Source: Escherichia coli | Lineage (GTDB): Bacteria; Pseudomonadota; Gammaproteobacteria; Enterobacterales; Enterobacteriaceae | Reading direction: 5' to 3' (one strand) | Assembly: GCF_030013595.1 (NCBI RefSeq) | Contig: NZ_CP122768.1 | DNA length: 64,000 bases | Shown: positions 6,678 to 16,860 of the stretch, one piece after another | How the letters are laid out: each line of letters opens with the position of its first letter | Position numbering within the stretch: the stretch's first letter is position 1 | Program-made: the position numbers and the translations under genes | The notes under the pieces: generated by a model | What the model saw: the letters and a program-made list of their open reading frames with translations, nothing else | Told to the model about the DNA's origin: nothing | Databases searched by the model: none

Positions 6678-7231
6678 AGCGCAAAGTATTGTTAATTCCG
6701 TTGATTATCTTCCTGGCGATTGCCGCGGCGCTGCTGTGGCAGCTGGCGCGTAATGCCGAAGGGGATGATCCGACCAATCTGGAATCGGCGCTCATTGGCA
6801 AGCCGGTGCCGAAGTTTCGCCTCGAATCACTGGACAATCCGGGGCAGTTTTATCAGGCGGATGTGCTGACTCAGGGCAAACCAGTGCTGCTTAACGTCTG
6901 GGCGACCTGGTGTCCGACCTGCCGTGCGGAACATCAATATCTGAATCAGCTTTCTGCGCAGGGCATCCGCGTGGTCGGCATGAACTATAAAGACGATCGC
7001 CAGAAGGCAATCAGCTGGCTGAAAGAGCTGGGCAATCCTTACGCGCTAAGCCTGTTTGATGGCGATGGCATGTTAGGGCTGGATCTCGGTGTCTATGGCG
7101 CGCCGGAAACGTTCCTCATCGACGGCAACGGCATCATTCGCTATCGCCATGCGGGCGATCTCAATCCTCGCGTCTGGGAAGAAGAGATCAAGCCGCTATG
7201 GGAGAAATACAGTAAGGAGGCCGCACAATGA
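6674..7231 (+). CDS. ccmG: Thiol:disulfide interchange protein CcmG/DsbE
   Basis: 185 aa, thioredoxin-fold active site WCPTC, membrane anchor. Confidence 0.9.
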   Translation: MKRKVLLIPLIIFLAIAAALLWQLARNAEGDDPTNLESALIGKPVPKFRLESLDNPGQFYQADVLTQGKPVLLNVWATWCPTCRAEHQYLNQLSAQGIRVVGMNYKDDRQKAISWLKELGNPYALSLFDGDGMLGLDLGVYGAPETFLIDGNGIIRYRHAGDLNPRVWEEEIKPLWEKYSKEAAQ

Positions 7232-11873: not shown

Positions 11874-11933
11874 TAACAGACAATAAACAGGCCGTGATGT
11901 GTCGCGGTCTGTTTATCGAATTAAATGCAGATA

Positions 11934-11968
11934 TAAAAAAACCAACCTTTACGGTTGGTTTTTTTGGG
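11934..11968 (+). terminator. Rho-independent terminator of yejO
   Basis: AAACCAACC-TTTA-CGGTTGGTTT hairpin followed by TTTTTTT. Confidence 0.7.
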
Positions 11969-12044
11969 ATTTTTGGTCACGAGAGTATTCAAAACACGCC
12001 AATAACCTCTTGATTCAATTGAAGTCGAAAATTTTAAGTCAAAA

Positions 12045-12085
12045 ATCGTATAGCTTAACGTGTAGCTAAAAATGTTTGCTGCAAA
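12045..12085. repeat. Island-terminal repeat CGTATAGCTTAACGTGTAGCTAAAAA, matching the int-proximal end
   Basis: Near-identical to GTATAGCTAAACGTGTAGCTAAAAAA at about 22035-22060; candidate integrase arm-type sites. Confidence 0.5.
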
Positions 12086-12622
12086 AGTATACAATTTTAA
12101 CCGTTATGACTCCCTGTTATCCGTTATCAAGCTGGTGGATGATCATGGATAACCCGTTATGGGAATCCCCATATCGGCATCAGGCCCATGCCATAACAAA
12201 AACCCCATATTCGTGGGTTTTCTGTGTTGTGGCTATTCTGCCGTTGCCGTGCTGGTGGATATTTCCGGTATGTGGCTCACCATATCGGCATCACGCCCAC
12301 CAGCGCGACGCATTTTTTTAATTTCGCGGGTGTAAAAATTTGACGGGGCGGGCGGTCCTATAAGCAATGGGGGGTAGGGATTTCGATCCCCCCTCCTGAA
12401 TGCAATTTTCCGTATGTGGCTGTGCGGCAATCATACTCGTCACATGTTTTTGACAATAAAAGGCCCGACCGTGAGACTCACAAACAAAAAAGTTACGGAG
12501 AAACAGGGGATCGGGCTCGGTTGCCGCTAAATCTATTCAATTAAAAGAAGATGTCAATAGGGAAAACGAAAAAAAACAATGCTGATATTGTCATAATTTG
12601 AACAAAACCACTATATGTAGTT

Positions 12623-12853
12623 TTAGTTCATGAGGTTAGTCGCTACCAGATGCGTCAATAGTTTTTTGCTATTAATAATCCCTCTTTTTCCATCGGGAGC
12701 TTTGCACTTGTCACTACCTGGTAACTCCTGGTGGCGTTCCTGTTGCAGCACAACGGAAACAGGCGCTGAACACCTGTTAATTTTGCTTGCAGGTTGTTTG
12801 ATTTCGGCAATGCTGCGGATCATCTCCAGCATATCGGCTTCGGTGATGGTCAT
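12623..12853 (-). CDS. Hypothetical small protein (76 aa) at the distal end of the island
   Basis: ORF with AAGGTG ribosome-binding site 6 nt upstream of the ATG; no recognisable motif. Confidence 0.3.
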   Translation of the reverse strand: MTITEADMLEMIRSIAEIKQPASKINRCSAPVSVVLQQERHQELPGSDKCKAPDGKRGIINSKKLLTHLVATNLMN

Positions 12854-12883
12854 GATTTACACCTTAGGAAATCTTAGGGGCTG

Positions 12884-13137
12884 GTTGACACTTTCCGGCT
12901 TAAGACCTTAACAAATCTTAACATCGCAGGTTGACACACTTGACACTTTTTCGCGAAAAACCTTATCAAACCTTAGCATTTCTAAGCATGGCAACTTGAC
13001 ACTTTTCGCGATTTTTTCGGCTTTTTGACGTGGTAAATCTGGCGCAAAGCCAGTAACGGCGGGGTTTACAGCGAGGTTGACACTTTTTCGCGTTCAGAGT
13101 GTAAAGTGTCAACCTGGCAAGCTGCTCAACTTGACAC
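12884..13137. repeat. Array of at least 7 copies of GGTTGACAC(TTTTTCGCG) in both orientations, interspersed with CTTA(A/G)CA short repeats
   Basis: Copies at about 12884, 12929, 12940, 12996, 13075, 13105 (inverted) and 13131; lies immediately downstream of the TerS-like gene. Confidence 0.6.
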
Positions 13138-13146
13138 TTTTTGAGG

Positions 13147-13674
13147 TCATTGATGGCCTGATTTTTCCCACTCAGCCAGGGCGTTTAGTCCGGCTTCACT
13201 CCAGTTATCCAGCTCATCGGGACAATCACCTGCAACATAGCAGAGCTCACAACGCAGCATACGAATTGCCAGCCTGGCATTTTCCCGAAAATCATACTGC
13301 TCAAAGTAATATTGCCCAGCATAATCCTCAAGGCAGATAGCACCATCATCAAGAAATTGCACTTCACAGCATAGTTCCCCGGCTGCATCCTGTACACGCT
13401 GCTGTATGTCATTGTCCGTTACTGGTGCAGGGATTTTACCGTCTCTGGCCTTAACTGCTTTCCAGAACTCGCCCCACGTCATTTCCAGCGTTCTCTCTGG
13501 CCACATTTCAGAAACGGTATCTTTTCCCTGTGCTGGTGGGCTGTTCCGCTGCTCTGTCGCTTCCACATCGATTTTTTTACCGGACATGACCACTTCGCCT
13601 TTCTCGATCCAGTCGTAAACTGTCTGGCGGCTTACGCCTTTGTGTTTGGCATATTCTGCCTTGCTCATAAACAT
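13147..13674 (-). CDS. Small terminase-like winged-HTH protein (Rpp-like packaging-redirection candidate)
   Basis: 175 aa; N-terminal MSKAEYAKHKGVSRQTVYDWIEKG resembles the Nu1/TerS-type HTH; acidic cysteine-containing C-terminus; GAGGGGA ribosome-binding site. Confidence 0.5.
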   Translation of the reverse strand: MFMSKAEYAKHKGVSRQTVYDWIEKGEVVMSGKKIDVEATEQRNSPPAQGKDTVSEMWPERTLEMTWGEFWKAVKARDGKIPAPVTDNDIQQRVQDAAGELCCEVQFLDDGAICLEDYAGQYYFEQYDFRENARLAIRMLRCELCYVAGDCPDELDNWSEAGLNALAEWEKSGHQ

Positions 13675-13844
13675 GACACTTCCCCTCAGACTGTATTAAT
13701 GCGCCGGAAAGCGCGTGTATTTAAATCATCCCAGGAACCGTTGAGCACCAATTAGTTGCGCGAAGTAATCGGCACCAGCGTTCCGAACAATTTCCAACTT
13801 AACGTTCTGATCATTGTTTCCTGCTGCAGGGACAATCCCACGAT

Positions 13845-14498
13845 TCATAGCCAGCGCCCGGATATTTCTTCCAGTTTTTCCAGAGCTGGCTTGCAGGCCG
13901 CATCAATAACTTCACGGACCATTCCGGCGAGCTGTTCTTCTTCTGTCGGCGTTGTTACTTCCACACCTGATGGTTTCCCGCCCTTATCCCATACGCCCAA
14001 CGGTACGAGCGCAACGTGATCGATAAGAAATGGCGTACCCTCAATGAAAAAATTGTCCTCGCCCATTACATCAGGAACTTCTGCCCCACCGGACGCACCA
14101 CAAAACACAACCGACGGGCTGGTGGATACCTCCCCCCGTGCTTTCTGGATGTAATCGATGATTTCCTGCCCGTAAATCCGGCATACGCCCCACACCTCGT
14201 CACCGCGAATATACGGCAACATGACGGTGCCAATAATGCGCGACCGTTCGCCCACGTCTTCAAGGGTTTTGCTTTCGGGATGGTCGATAATGACGGGTAC
14301 TCCGGCGCAACGTTCCAGGAACTGCGGATTGAGATAAGTTTGCGGTGAACGCCAGACAAATTCTTTTTCTTCGGCGCGATAGGCCATTCCGGTTCCTGTG
14401 ATACGCAGGTTAATCAGCCACATGTTGGAAAACTGATAAGGCGACGGTAGCTGACCGTCCCGAATCTGCTTTGCCGCCTCAATTTCTGTTAAAAGCAT
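13845..14498 (-). CDS. Hypothetical protein (217 aa), island cargo of unknown function
   Basis: ORF in the same transcriptional orientation as the packaging module; no motif I can assign. Confidence 0.5.
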   Translation of the reverse strand: MLLTEIEAAKQIRDGQLPSPYQFSNMWLINLRITGTGMAYRAEEKEFVWRSPQTYLNPQFLERCAGVPVIIDHPESKTLEDVGERSRIIGTVMLPYIRGDEVWGVCRIYGQEIIDYIQKARGEVSTSPSVVFCGASGGAEVPDVMGEDNFFIEGTPFLIDHVALVPLGVWDKGGKPSGVEVTTPTEEEQLAGMVREVIDAACKPALEKLEEISGRWL

Positions 14499-14562
14499 AA
14501 TGTCCCCCGGTTATAAGCAATAAGCCCCACCAAATCCGGCAGGGCTGAAATCAGCACGTTTT

Positions 14563-15156
14563 TCATGCCCCCGCGAGGCTTGCAACGTTAATTTTAACCA
14601 GGCGACGGGGAGGGATTTTGAAAGCACTAAGCCAGTTATTCGGATCCCCCTGATATTCAGTAATCCGCCGTCCGGCTTCATCCATTCTTACGGTTTTACG
14701 CAAATAGCCCGGCGTATTTTCCACAGCCCACTGAACACTGTCTTTTGCAGCCTGGTAAATCTGATCTTCCAGCACCGCCAGCGTTGCAGAATCTGAAACG
14801 GAACGAATATCCACATCACTGAATTTTTTAGCCAGCTTCTGTGCACCAATTAATGCACGCTTGCGGTAATCCATCGACTTTTCACCAGCAAACGGGGCTG
14901 GAGCGCGACGGCCCATATTGCTGTATGCGGAATCCGCTTTAGCCTGGGCTTCTGCCAGTGAGGATTCATCTTCGACTGACGCGACGATGTTTTTATTCGC
15001 GTCATCCTCGTCCGCTTTTGTGAAATCCTGTGCGGGGATCGCATTCAGAATTTCGATAATCTCCTGCGGAGTGCTGCCCTGCGACTCTGACAGAGCGTTA
15101 ACCACCTCCATCAGTTTTAATCGCAAATCTTCTTTGCTTGCTGGCATTTTTACCAC
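14563..15156 (-). CDS. Hypothetical protein (197 aa), acidic and Ala/Lys-rich, predicted largely helical
   Basis: ORF adjacent to the 217-aa ORF; composition resembles scaffold or decoration-like proteins, but this is unverified. Confidence 0.5.
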   Translation of the reverse strand: MVKMPASKEDLRLKLMEVVNALSESQGSTPQEIIEILNAIPAQDFTKADEDDANKNIVASVEDESSLAEAQAKADSAYSNMGRRAPAPFAGEKSMDYRKRALIGAQKLAKKFSDVDIRSVSDSATLAVLEDQIYQAAKDSVQWAVENTPGYLRKTVRMDEAGRRITEYQGDPNNWLSAFKIPPRRLVKINVASLAGA

Positions 15157-15186
15157 CTCTCTTTTTTCACCAAAAAATCACGACCA

Positions 15187-15366
15187 TCAGGCCGGACGTT
15201 CTACGGGATAAAGCGCCCGCTGCATTAAACGCCGGGCGACCTCATGAATGCTCGGAGCAATCCCCAGCGGAGAATTGCGGCGTTCCTCGTCCTGGATGCG
15301 CTGTAATGCTTCAATCTGATCACGAGCGAGTAAAACGGGTTTCACGCTGGCTTTTCTCATAGTCAT
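15187..15366 (-). CDS. Hypothetical small basic protein (59 aa), possible DNA-binding regulator
   Basis: AGGAG ribosome-binding site upstream of ATGACTATG; first gene after tandem terminators, so it probably heads its own transcription unit. Confidence 0.4.
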   Translation of the reverse strand: MTMRKASVKPVLLARDQIEALQRIQDEERRNSPLGIAPSIHEVARRLMQRALYPVERPA

Positions 15367-15489
15367 ATCTCCTGAACAAAACAATGATTATGATTGCACA
15401 AACTGAAATAACGATCTACATCATTGCAATTTATGAAACAATAACGCATGATGATCGCGTTCTTCCCATTGACTTCAATCACCTGAAAA

Positions 15490-15560
15490 ACAAAGCCCGC
15501 AACACTTCTGGCTGCGGGTTTTTTACTGGCACAAAAAAGCCGGGAAAAATCCCGGCCTCC
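15490..15560 (-). terminator. Tandem rho-independent terminators downstream of the PerC-like gene
   Basis: Two hairpins (GCCGGGA...TCCCGGC and CCCGCA...TGCGGG), each followed by a T-run on the minus strand. Confidence 0.55.
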
Positions 15561-15561
15561 G

Positions 15562-15849
15562 TCACTGACTGCAATTTTTCGATCCAGGGTATTTCCTGAA
15601 TGCCTTACCATTGGGCTGATGTAATCCCATCCCGGCATGTGCCCGGCTGATGGTTTCGCGCATTTCCCCGAAATTATCCTGCCTTGCTGGTGGGCGTGCT
15701 GCCTTGCGGATACATTCCGCGCGACGTTTTGCCGCCTGTTCCCGTGCCTTGTCATCATTCGCCAGCATGATGACCTCAGCCCACCGCGCCGCCGCTCTCC
15801 GGTACAGACCACGCGCTTCCAGTGCTTCCGCTTTGCTGTCGTGAATCAT
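15562..15849 (-). CDS. PerC-family transcriptional regulator-like protein
   Basis: 95 aa; N-terminus MIHDSKAEALEARGLYRRAAARW matches my memory of the PerC/Pch family; GGAGAA ribosome-binding site; 4-nt overlap with the upstream gene. Confidence 0.55.
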   Translation of the reverse strand: MIHDSKAEALEARGLYRRAAARWAEVIMLANDDKAREQAAKRRAECIRKAARPPARQDNFGEMRETISRAHAGMGLHQPNGKAFRKYPGSKNCSQ

Positions 15850-16388
15850 GCGCCTGTTTTCTCCTTTGCTGCCCGGCGCTGACGTTTGCGCTTCTCATTC
15901 AGCGCCACCAGCCGCGTTTCTGCGTCCTGTTGTTCCTGTGGTGTCACCTCGCCGCACGGCTGGCCTTTCAGGTCGTAGCGTACCCCACCAGCCATTAAGG
16001 CGCGGTAATAGCGCGGACACTGCGCATAAGATGCCAGCGTCGCACGCAATGCCCCTGGACCGAATGCCAGCCCCCTGACGGCGAGATCCTGCATCAGGTC
16101 GTCGAATATCCCCACCTTAAGCGGCTTCGGTGCTTCCCGGCTGAATAATTCAGGCCACAACTCAGTGAGGCGGTTAACGCGCCTGCGGTTTTTGCGCTGG
16201 CGTTTGGTCATATGCCGCCACGGTGTCGCCCCTGTGGGCTTCTGCTGCGCTTTCTGGTTACCGGGCATCACTTTATGCGCCGATGTGGTTTTATCCTGCT
16301 CCTGCGCCGCCTGCGTCGTTTTCTGCGGCGTGCCGTAAATGCCTTTCGGTTTTCTGTTAATGGTCAGCTTAGTCATGCTTTGCCCCAT
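15846..16388 (-). CDS. FinO/ProQ-family RNA-binding protein-like
   Basis: 180 aa; basic N-terminal region followed by LKVGIFDDL...YAQCPRYYRAL, resembling the FinO/ProQ fold. Confidence 0.5.
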   Translation of the reverse strand: MGQSMTKLTINRKPKGIYGTPQKTTQAAQEQDKTTSAHKVMPGNQKAQQKPTGATPWRHMTKRQRKNRRRVNRLTELWPELFSREAPKPLKVGIFDDLMQDLAVRGLAFGPGALRATLASYAQCPRYYRALMAGGVRYDLKGQPCGEVTPQEQQDAETRLVALNEKRKRQRRAAKEKTGA

Positions 16389-16439
16389 CGTTTTTACTGG
16401 TTGCTACGTTGCCCAACGGCACTGACACAACATTCTGTT

Positions 16440-16860
16440 TTCATTTTTAACATTCCTGATTTTTTAATTCCTCACCTGCTGCACAGTGAAAATTTATGAA
16501 GTTAATAACAATATGATTTTAAATGTATTTTTAAGTACTCACTTTTTAATCCTTATATATACGCAAAAGTGAGGTAAATAGTTAAGTTTTAGTTAATATC
16601 TTGCATGGTGTGTTTTTTAACCTACCTGTTATTTTTATTACCTCATTTCTATTAACTCACCATTCCTCACTTTTGTTCCTCACTTTTTATTATTCTTGTT
16701 CTGCTCCTCAGTCGTTTTCTTTATTGTTGTAATCTGTTGTTTTGCAATGTGTTTTTAACTCCTCACTTTTTGACCTATATACAGGTGAGAAAGTGAGGAG
16801 TGGCGTTGATTTTTTGTTAAATTACCCGCCATCCTCACTTTTGCTCCTCACTTTTTACAG
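16440..16860. repeat. Putative satellite replication origin: AT-rich region with CCTCACTTTT iterons
   Basis: At least 8 copies of CCTCACTTTT (direct and inverted) plus degenerate copies, immediately downstream of the RepA-like gene. Confidence 0.7.

Follow-up and report, generated by a model that had tools for sequence, protein, structure and literature searches.

A phiP27-type cos site in a capsid-less satellite island of Escherichia coli and its probable use with a phiP27/e14-type helper

The window analyzed here, a 64,000-nt stretch of contig NZ_CP122768.1 (assembly GCF_030013595.1), is Escherichia coli chromosome with the gene order nap-ccm-narP-yejO ... proL-yejM, and its nearest relatives are porcine enterotoxigenic E. 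coli (ETEC) strains. Comparison with the empty site of strain K-12, in which the yejO terminator is joined straight to the 3′ end of the tRNA, delimits an island of 10,182 bp (∼11990 to 22171) at the 3′ end of tRNA-Pro(GGG), between yejO and yejM. The subject of this study is a GC-rich element near 12330 to 12400, ∼350 nt inward from the int-distal end of the island, i.e., to the right of attL. On its sequence homology, this element is a cohesive-end (cos) site of the HK97/P27 class, HNH associated and with a predicted 10-nt 3′ overhang, rather than an attachment (att) or tRNA remnant, and it is probably the packaging site of a satellite resembling phage-inducible chromosomal islands (PICIs) and used with a phiP27/e14-type helper.

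The island encodes a tyrosine integrase, an AlpA regulator, an Icd-like protein, a DUF4222 protein, a RepA-family helicase, ProQ/FinO and PerC proteins, a DUF2213 protease-like protein, and a 175-amino-acid (aa) winged helix-turn-helix (wHTH) protein, a gene set that matches Gram-negative PICI-type phage satellites (PMC6092414). As in PICIs, the integrase gene is placed at one end and is accompanied by specific att sites, AlpA is followed by a replication module, and the size lies in the range of about 10 to 15 kb. Scans of open reading frames (ORFs) and of Pfam and PHROG families detected no capsid, tail, lysis, or terminase genes in the island, apart from the one DUF2213 protease-like gene, and tblastn searches of the 64-kb window with phiP27 TerS, TerL, HNH, and portal proteins and with the TerS and TerL of capsid-forming PICIs (cf-PICIs) gave zero matches. 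As it has no capsid, portal, protease, HNH, TerS, or TerL genes of its own, the island is not a cf-PICI. The island family is widespread in E. coli: 1845 of 5426 complete genomes have matches to parts of it, and porcine ETEC strains carry the nearest copies. The parts of the element, none of which has an assigned strand, are as follows.

12315 to 12344: terminase-proximal half (+1 to +30 in phage numbering), candidate TerS recognition site TTTTTAATTTCGCGGGTGTAAAAATTTGAC, from phage comparison
12345 to 12354: cosN core GGGGCGGGCG, predicted 10-nt cohesive end, equivalent to the phiP27 misc_feature “cos-site” at 21806 to 21815
12355 to 12375: spacer, GTCC followed by the lineage-specific near-dyad CCTATAAGCAATGGG, from phage/satellite comparison
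12376 to 12396: conserved right-hand motif AGGGATTTCGATCCCCCCTCC, overlapping the right-hand 18 nt (12376 to 12393) of a palindrome

The original prediction had described a GC-rich element within an AT-rich noncoding region, and the strings that it named are all present close to the positions given. The run GACGGGGCGGGCGGTCC lies at 12342 to 12358 and occurs once in the window (0.04 matches expected at ≤2 mismatches), and the palindrome GGGGGGTAGGGATTTCGATCCCCCC lies at 12369 to 12393. The G+C content is 64% over 12342 to 12397, versus 42% in the ORF-poor stretch at 11874 to 12622, downstream of the yejO autotransporter gene; from 11874, this stretch extends for ∼0.75 kb to a small ORF and for ∼1.27 kb to the first solid gene (13147). 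The two motifs reported as duplicated fared differently: CCATATCGGCATCA does occur exactly twice (12169 to 12182 and 12280 to 12293), whereas the supposed duplicate of CCGTATGTGGCT (12410 to 12421) is CCGGTATGTGGCT at 12265 to 12277, one base longer. The second CCGTATGTGGCT copy is missing from other satellite lineages, which have TCGTATATATA instead, and the close islands of ETEC6335 and ETEC4090 keep (T/C)CGTATGTGGC.

Several lines of evidence identify the class of the site. First, when the region 12100 to 12620 was searched by BLAST against 50,697 phage records (2.3 Gb), the best phage match was the Stx2e phage phiP27 (AJ298298), exactly on its annotated “cos-site” (E values of 5e-14 and 7e-15), which is flanked by an HNH endonuclease gene and a P27-family (Terminase_4) TerS gene; positions 12315 to 12358 are identical to the phiP27 cos region at 44 of 44 nt. 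Second, the register is exact: the ends of the linear records of Burkholderia phages phiE125 and phi1026b land at 12344|12345 and 12354|12355, flanking the decamer, and the HK97 ends fall in the same register (...AAATTCAAAC|TTTGGCGGCG|GTCA... in HK97 versus ...AAATTTGAC|GGGGCGGGCG|GTCC... in the window). Third, the core at 12345 to 12354 resembles the 10-nt cohesive end TGCCCGCCCC of SfI, a Shigella phage of the same packaging group whose end was established from sequenced virion DNA termini (PMC3636060). Fourth, in a pattern scan of IMG/VR the block turned up in 57 viral contigs, from E. coli P27/e14-like phages and many Burkholderia phages, and it stands just upstream of terS in every annotated reference phage or prophage examined. 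The cos half of the original prediction is thus upheld by homology to annotated, end-mapped sites of the HK97/P27 class. Its likeness to the lambdoid cohesive end is generic only. Neither lambda cosN GGGCGGCGACCT nor a P2-type cos is present in the island, and a lambda-type cos was rejected, the best homologues being HK97/P27-class sites; satellite phage P4 likewise borrows the cos of its helper (P2) and is unrelated in sequence.

The other half of the original prediction, an old attachment scar with a palindrome of weak T-arm-like appearance, turns on the att features of the island.

∼11975 to 11998, no strand given: attL, a degenerate copy of the tRNA-Pro 3′ end, TGGTCACGAGAGTATTCAAAAC, from the K-12 empty site
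22172 to 22248, minus strand: tRNA-Pro(GGG) gene proL, the 3′ end of which is attR (ARAGORN, Rfam, and K-12 comparison)
12050 to 12072 and 22028 to 22053, no strand given: repeat TATAGCTTAACGTGTAGCTAAAAA (16-nt exact repeat), probable integrase arm-type sites

Since the tRNA-derived att copy lies at 11975 to 11998, it is separate from the GC-rich element, and prediction of tRNAs at 12330 to 12400 gave zero hits with ARAGORN, which called only proL, and with Rfam even at E values of ≤1. The palindrome can form a GGGAT/ATCCC stem with a TTCG loop, and the island does sit at a tRNA gene, but the folding energy is ordinary (−7.2 kcal/mol as DNA; z = −0.77 versus shuffles), the outer arms are not conserved in relatives (G6/C6 is peculiar to this island lineage, with AGGTTG, GGGTTG, or GAGGTG in other satellite lineages), no T run follows, and no terminator was called there. 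The T-arm look arises instead from the conserved cos-flank motif described below. An attachment scar, a tRNA (T-arm) fragment, or a terminator or small-RNA hairpin is therefore extremely improbable as an account of the element. The att copy itself has a 2-nt deletion and several substitutions relative to the tRNA 3′ end and recalls the damaged tRNA-derived att fragment left by PICI integration (PMC10111431). The 16- to 24-nt repeat at 12050 to 12072 and 22028 to 22053 was tried as the att core and rejected, as no genome gave a contiguous match to a synthetic empty site constructed from it. With the K-12 empty site as reference, both copies fall within the island, and the region upstream of int contains several related (G/T/A)TAGCTA copies, so integrase arm-type sites are the more likely identity of this pair.

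The left, terminase gene-side half of the cos site is identical at 30 of 30 positions to phiP27 and e14-like prophages and is conserved in Burkholderia and Pseudomonas phages with P27-type TerS; the identity between island and phiP27 ends exactly at +30. In HK97, TerS binds +15 to +29 from the cut, the overhangs are 10 nt and 3′, and cleavage needs or is stimulated by the HNH protein gp74 (PMC11331095 and PMC9410871). The window equivalent of HK97 +1 to +30 runs from 12344 down to 12315, and the left half is a likely candidate for the docking site of a phiP27-type TerS. The P27-TerS prophages of E. coli have two cos types, here called A and B, in which the HNH proteins are 98% identical and the right flank is shared, while TerS (19% identical), TerL (38% identical), and the left halves, which are unrelated in sequence, differ together; the left half thus tracks TerS/TerL. 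The recombination junction between the types lies inside the 10-nt core (L007 5001 to 5044 versus L072 3470 to 3520 and L099 ∼880 to 960). The island has the type A (phiP27/e14) left half, and the type B half is found in another kind of satellite, with a Nu1-like TerS, a capsid protein, and a decoration protein, so that satellites carry left halves of either type.

To the right of the core, GTCC is kept in P27-type phages and satellites (GTCA in HK97), whereas the next ∼20 nt differ between phage-type and satellite-type flanks and show local dyad symmetry in several lineages. In Burkholderia cos sites (L004 3045 to 3060; L010 to L065), an inverted repeat directly follows GTCC (fold z = −4.4), and its arms covary (GAAGGC/GCCTTC, GGAGGC/GCCTCC, and GAGGGC/GCCCTC). 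Beyond the spacer, the motif AGGGATTT..CCCCCCTCC lies 24 nt from the core in the window, phiP27, and HK97 and about 22 to 25 nt from it elsewhere, in ∼10 lineages that include phiP27, e14-like, Salmonella F1055, Pseudomonas PARCL1pr and SC_8, Burkholderia, and HK97 phages. It reads AGGGATTTGACCCGCCCCTCCCC in phiP27 and e14-like phages, AGACTTTTTCACCCCCCTCCCC in Burkholderia phages, and GATTTGATCCCCCCCCCTG in HK97; local alignments of the motif against shuffles gave p values of ∼0.001 for HK97, 0.001 for phiP27, and 0.007 for phiE125. What is conserved is the sequence of the motif and not the hairpin. As a feature of the class, this flank motif (AGRGATTT..C-tract) was defined by comparison in the present analysis and not taken from the literature, and the papers on HK97/P27-type cos sites that were examined assign it no function. 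Because HK97 and phiP27 share TerL (E value of 1e-23) and HNH (E value of 2e-10) homologues but have no detectably similar TerS, the motif is probably read by TerL and/or HNH, or else it acts in termination, like lambda cosQ. It might conceivably be a third subsite, previously unrecognized, that HNH-dependent cos sites share from HK97 through to the Burkholderia phages.

The surroundings of the cos site are those of satellites rather than phages, and the following features belong to this distal module.

12121 to 12188, no strand given: satellite repeat unit copy 1, with CCATATCGGCATCA and CCGTTAT repeats (repeat pair)
12204 to 12217, plus strand: terminator-like hairpin between the units, also kept in the cf-PICI L006
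12241 to 12299, no strand given: satellite repeat unit copy 2, directly adjoining the cos left half (repeat pair)
12623 to 12853, minus strand: small conserved satellite ORF, also at L006 7400 to 7681, L008 5130 to 5411, L048 1304 to 1597, and L073 957 to 1241

The two repeat units (∼60 to 70 nt) are 80 to 83% identical. Of 5426 complete E. coli genomes, 396 have the unit, and they have it at many loci. In unrelated satellites (L006, L008, L048, and L071), including cf-PICIs, Nu1-TerS satellites, and a thrW island without this cos, it stands at the distal end; it was not found in the phages. Copy 2 is near-identical and in the same position in L006, and its cos-proximal part is found in L048 and L088. 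One possibility is that the unit is a candidate satellite-specific packaging or specificity site. The small conserved protein (MTxTEAxxLxMIRxIAGI...YQWKKPERLRR) adjoins the distal module in every satellite examined, and the same cos orientation and int-distal position recur in other satellites. Sixteen IMG/VR contigs of 4 to 15 kb, most of them 9.5 to 13.5 kb (L080 to L094, L048, and L008), have in common the right flank CCCATAAGCAAT..GTAGGGATTTC(G/T)ATCCCCC, joined to a type A or a type B left half.

This satellite context raises the question of whether the island might be a satellite of a satellite, packaged by the TerS, TerL, and HNH of a coresident cf-PICI into cf-PICI heads. Members of the EcCIEDL933 family of cf-PICIs share with the island the repeat unit, the cos, the small ORF order, and the cos orientation. 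Outside the 44-nt block, the flanks of the island match cf-PICI cos regions (91 to 92% identity over 136 to 185 nt in L006, L048, and L088) and not phage ones, and strain ETEC4090 holds both this island, with this cos, and a cf-PICI. However, the cf-PICIs, which differ from the island in having their own capsid, portal, protease, HNH, and terminase genes, have variable cos cores: L006 (∼7090 to 7160), L097 (∼1500 to 1620), and L048 (254 to 350) encode 98 to 100% identical TerS, TerL, and HNH proteins yet have markedly different cores and left halves, the ETEC4090 resident included. The sequence of TerS alone therefore fails to explain packaging specificity in cf-PICIs. Moreover, the block in the island is exactly of the phage type, the satellite-type right flank is also found in unrelated Nu1-TerS satellites, which suggests shared ancestry rather than shared machinery, and at 10.2 kb the island reaches only about 66% of the length of a ∼15.4-kb cf-PICI genome. 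Packaging by a cf-PICI is accordingly judged quite unlikely.

Two observations concern particular cf-PICI-bearing strains. In the O157:H7 cf-PICI beside phoQ (L096 1980 to 2860; EcCIEDL933-like), the distal 850 nt contain repeated “TATCAACCAGTTACCGCGCC...” units and no P27-type core, and for this reason a link between the site and the experimentally studied EcCIEDL933 was not made. In ETEC4090, the TerL of the type B prophage is annotated as two fragments ∼150 kb apart (L097 614 to 1357 and L099 1 to 341), one of them directly beside a cf-PICI. The arrangement resembles that of helper-embedded PICIs, as described for Terminase_1 targets (PMC10111431), possibly with a rearrangement since.

The reading that we favor is that the element is the island's own packaging site, used with a phiP27/e14-type helper. 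In P27-type phages the cos lies between the HNH gene and terS/terL, none of which is present in the window; as the absence of packaging genes beside the site is what would be expected of a satellite copy, the element is treated as a borrowed cos rather than a phage's own. Starting from the homology, the exact register with mapped phage ends, the conserved parts of the site, and the gene content and boundaries of the satellite, we infer how the island would be cut and packaged, which proteins would act at which part, and what kind of helper would be involved. A helper phage with phiP27-type (type A) TerS, TerL, and HNH would induce the island, which would excise via its integrase and replicate via its RepA helicase. 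The helper terminase would bind 12315 to 12344, and staggered cuts at 12344/12355 would leave 10-nt 3′ cohesive ends. Packaging would then proceed leftward from 12344, over the circular junction of the excised, replicated island, to the next cos. The island could be packaged as multimers in helper heads, which is plausible because four units (4 × 10.18 kb = 40.7 kb) amount to 96% of the 42.6-kb phiP27 genome; alternatively, remodeled heads might be used, as a DUF2213 protease-like gene is present.

A number of points weigh against this reading. The 64-kb window contains no helper packaging genes, and ETEC6335, the closest complete genome with the island and the cos, is missing from the set of 18 complete E. 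coli genomes that have a full type A terS-cos-HNH module. UMNF18, ETEC4090, and STEC379 combine the island family with P27-family prophages; in UMNF18 and ETEC4090, the two that were checked, these are of type B. This cos is absent from the close island relatives of UMNF18 (same site) and of A17 and ARS-C101 (elsewhere), which means that the family carries the cos not as a fixed component but as a module open to exchange; the island could have gained it recently and make no use of it. In some satellite copies the core is changed (GGGGCGGGCA, GGGGTGGGCA, GAGGCGTGCG, and a 9-nt variant). The cos assignment in phiP27 is a GenBank misc_feature, and the TerS site was mapped in HK97, whose TerS has no detectable similarity to P27-family TerS, so that the analogy is positional only.

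The same observations bear on the idea that the element is an inert relic, a cos homologue swapped by recombination from a phage or cf-PICI packaging region into the variable distal end of the island and not used. The distal module is indeed variable, as the UMNF18 copy and the relatives at other sites testify; the match to ETEC6335 is lost at 12426 and picks up again near 12725, the small gene alongside carries a substituted C terminus, and the missing helper in the window and the absence of ETEC6335 from the type A list would also fit. Nevertheless, the 44-nt block is intact and identical to that of a live phage while both flanks have diverged, at least 16 satellite-sized contigs and several genomes show the same architecture in the same orientation and position, and satellites need a packaging site, for which no other candidate was found in the island. 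An unused relic is for these reasons considered unlikely. In the UMNF18 island (L073, same proL site), the repeat unit is kept, and where the P27-type cos would be there are a further copy of the small ORF and repeats shared with cf-PICI distal regions. In the window, the C terminus of the small ORF is replaced where homology to the island relatives breaks (∼12728).

A phage-type cos in a satellite has parallels in known systems. With phiP27 (relatives, e14, SfV, SfI, and ST64B), the island shares the 44-nt block, with the core CGCCCGCCCC, and the AGGGATTT..CCCCTCC motif at the same distance. It differs in that the phiP27 site stands between the HNH gene and terS, with the start codon about 45 nt from the core, while the island has no packaging genes, its far-left flank consists of satellite repeat units, and the 20 nt to the right of GTCC are of a satellite-specific type. 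The HK97 cos resembles that of the island in its cut register, in a G-rich core followed by GTC, in an A/T tract on the terS side, and in GATTT(C)GATCCCCCC exactly 24 nt away; the HK97 TerL and HNH are homologous to those of phiP27, and the left-half sequence differs.

Among satellites, a parallel in layout is EcCICFT073 (PMC6092414 and PMC6739421), which has int, AlpA, a replication module, and a helper-type cosN near the int-distal end, with nonphage sequence beyond. EcCICFT073, however, has a lambda/phi80 cosN with a 12-nt 5′ overhang and an Rpp protein, a homologue of which was not found in the island by sequence or fold, and in the island, unlike EcCICFT073, the presumed TerS site itself has been copied intact. 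The staphylococcal SaPIbov5-type cos PICIs, as cited in a preprint on cf-PICIs, are also capsid gene-poor islands with the helper's cos and a helper terminase that requires HNH, but they belong to another host phylum and have no sequence relation to the island.

The remaining features of the island are as follows.

12885 to 13146, no strand given: iterons TTGACACTTTTTCGCG (four copies), candidate origin or operator (repeat analysis)
13147 to 13674, minus strand: 175-aa protein with an N-terminal wHTH (PHROG TerS N terminus, 5e-7; AlphaFold predicted local distance difference test score, 89)
16855 to 18270, minus strand: RepA-family helicase, island replication protein (Pfam AAA_25, 2e-44, and PHROG primase/helicase families)
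19987 to 20193, minus strand: AlpA-family regulator (Pfam PF05930; E value of 4.5e-8)
20721 to 21962, minus strand: tyrosine integrase (Pfam Phage_integrase and Arm-DNA-bind_3)

The iteron array lies between the small ORF and the 175-aa wHTH gene and is accompanied by a second repeat family (ACCTTA..AATCTTA); from its repeat structure, it is a candidate origin or operator. The Rpp proteins of EcCICFT073 are 139 to 154 aa long, with a wHTH and dimerization helices, and are encoded beside cos (PMC6092414 and PMC6739421). The 175-aa protein was considered as an Rpp-like packaging redirector and rejected: no PDB sequence match to RppC was obtained at E values of ≤1, Foldseek gave only Xis/BldC-like wHTH N-terminal domains at an E value of 0.5 and no RppC, and the protein is also present in island relatives without this cos. 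The neighboring genes at 13845 to 14498 and 14563 to 15156 (both minus strand) match separate parts of a single 545-aa PHROG (phrog_6216), with the order swapped, and the former also matches DUF2213 and a head maturation protease family; the two may have a role in capsid interference.

That a satellite carries the cos of its helper is a well-established principle. Only modestly new are the presence of the HK97/P27 HNH-associated cos class on a capsid-less E. coli island and the modularity of its halves. We predict that the island copy would be mobilized by phages with a phiP27/e14-type terminase and HNH, with ends at 12344/12355. More generally, the comparisons show that HK97/P27-type cos sites are built of exchangeable halves, the left tracking TerS/TerL and the right tracking HNH, and that satellites combine a helper-type left half with a right flank of their own. 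This modularity is of use in designing cos-based transfer vectors and in predicting from sequence which helper and satellite go together.

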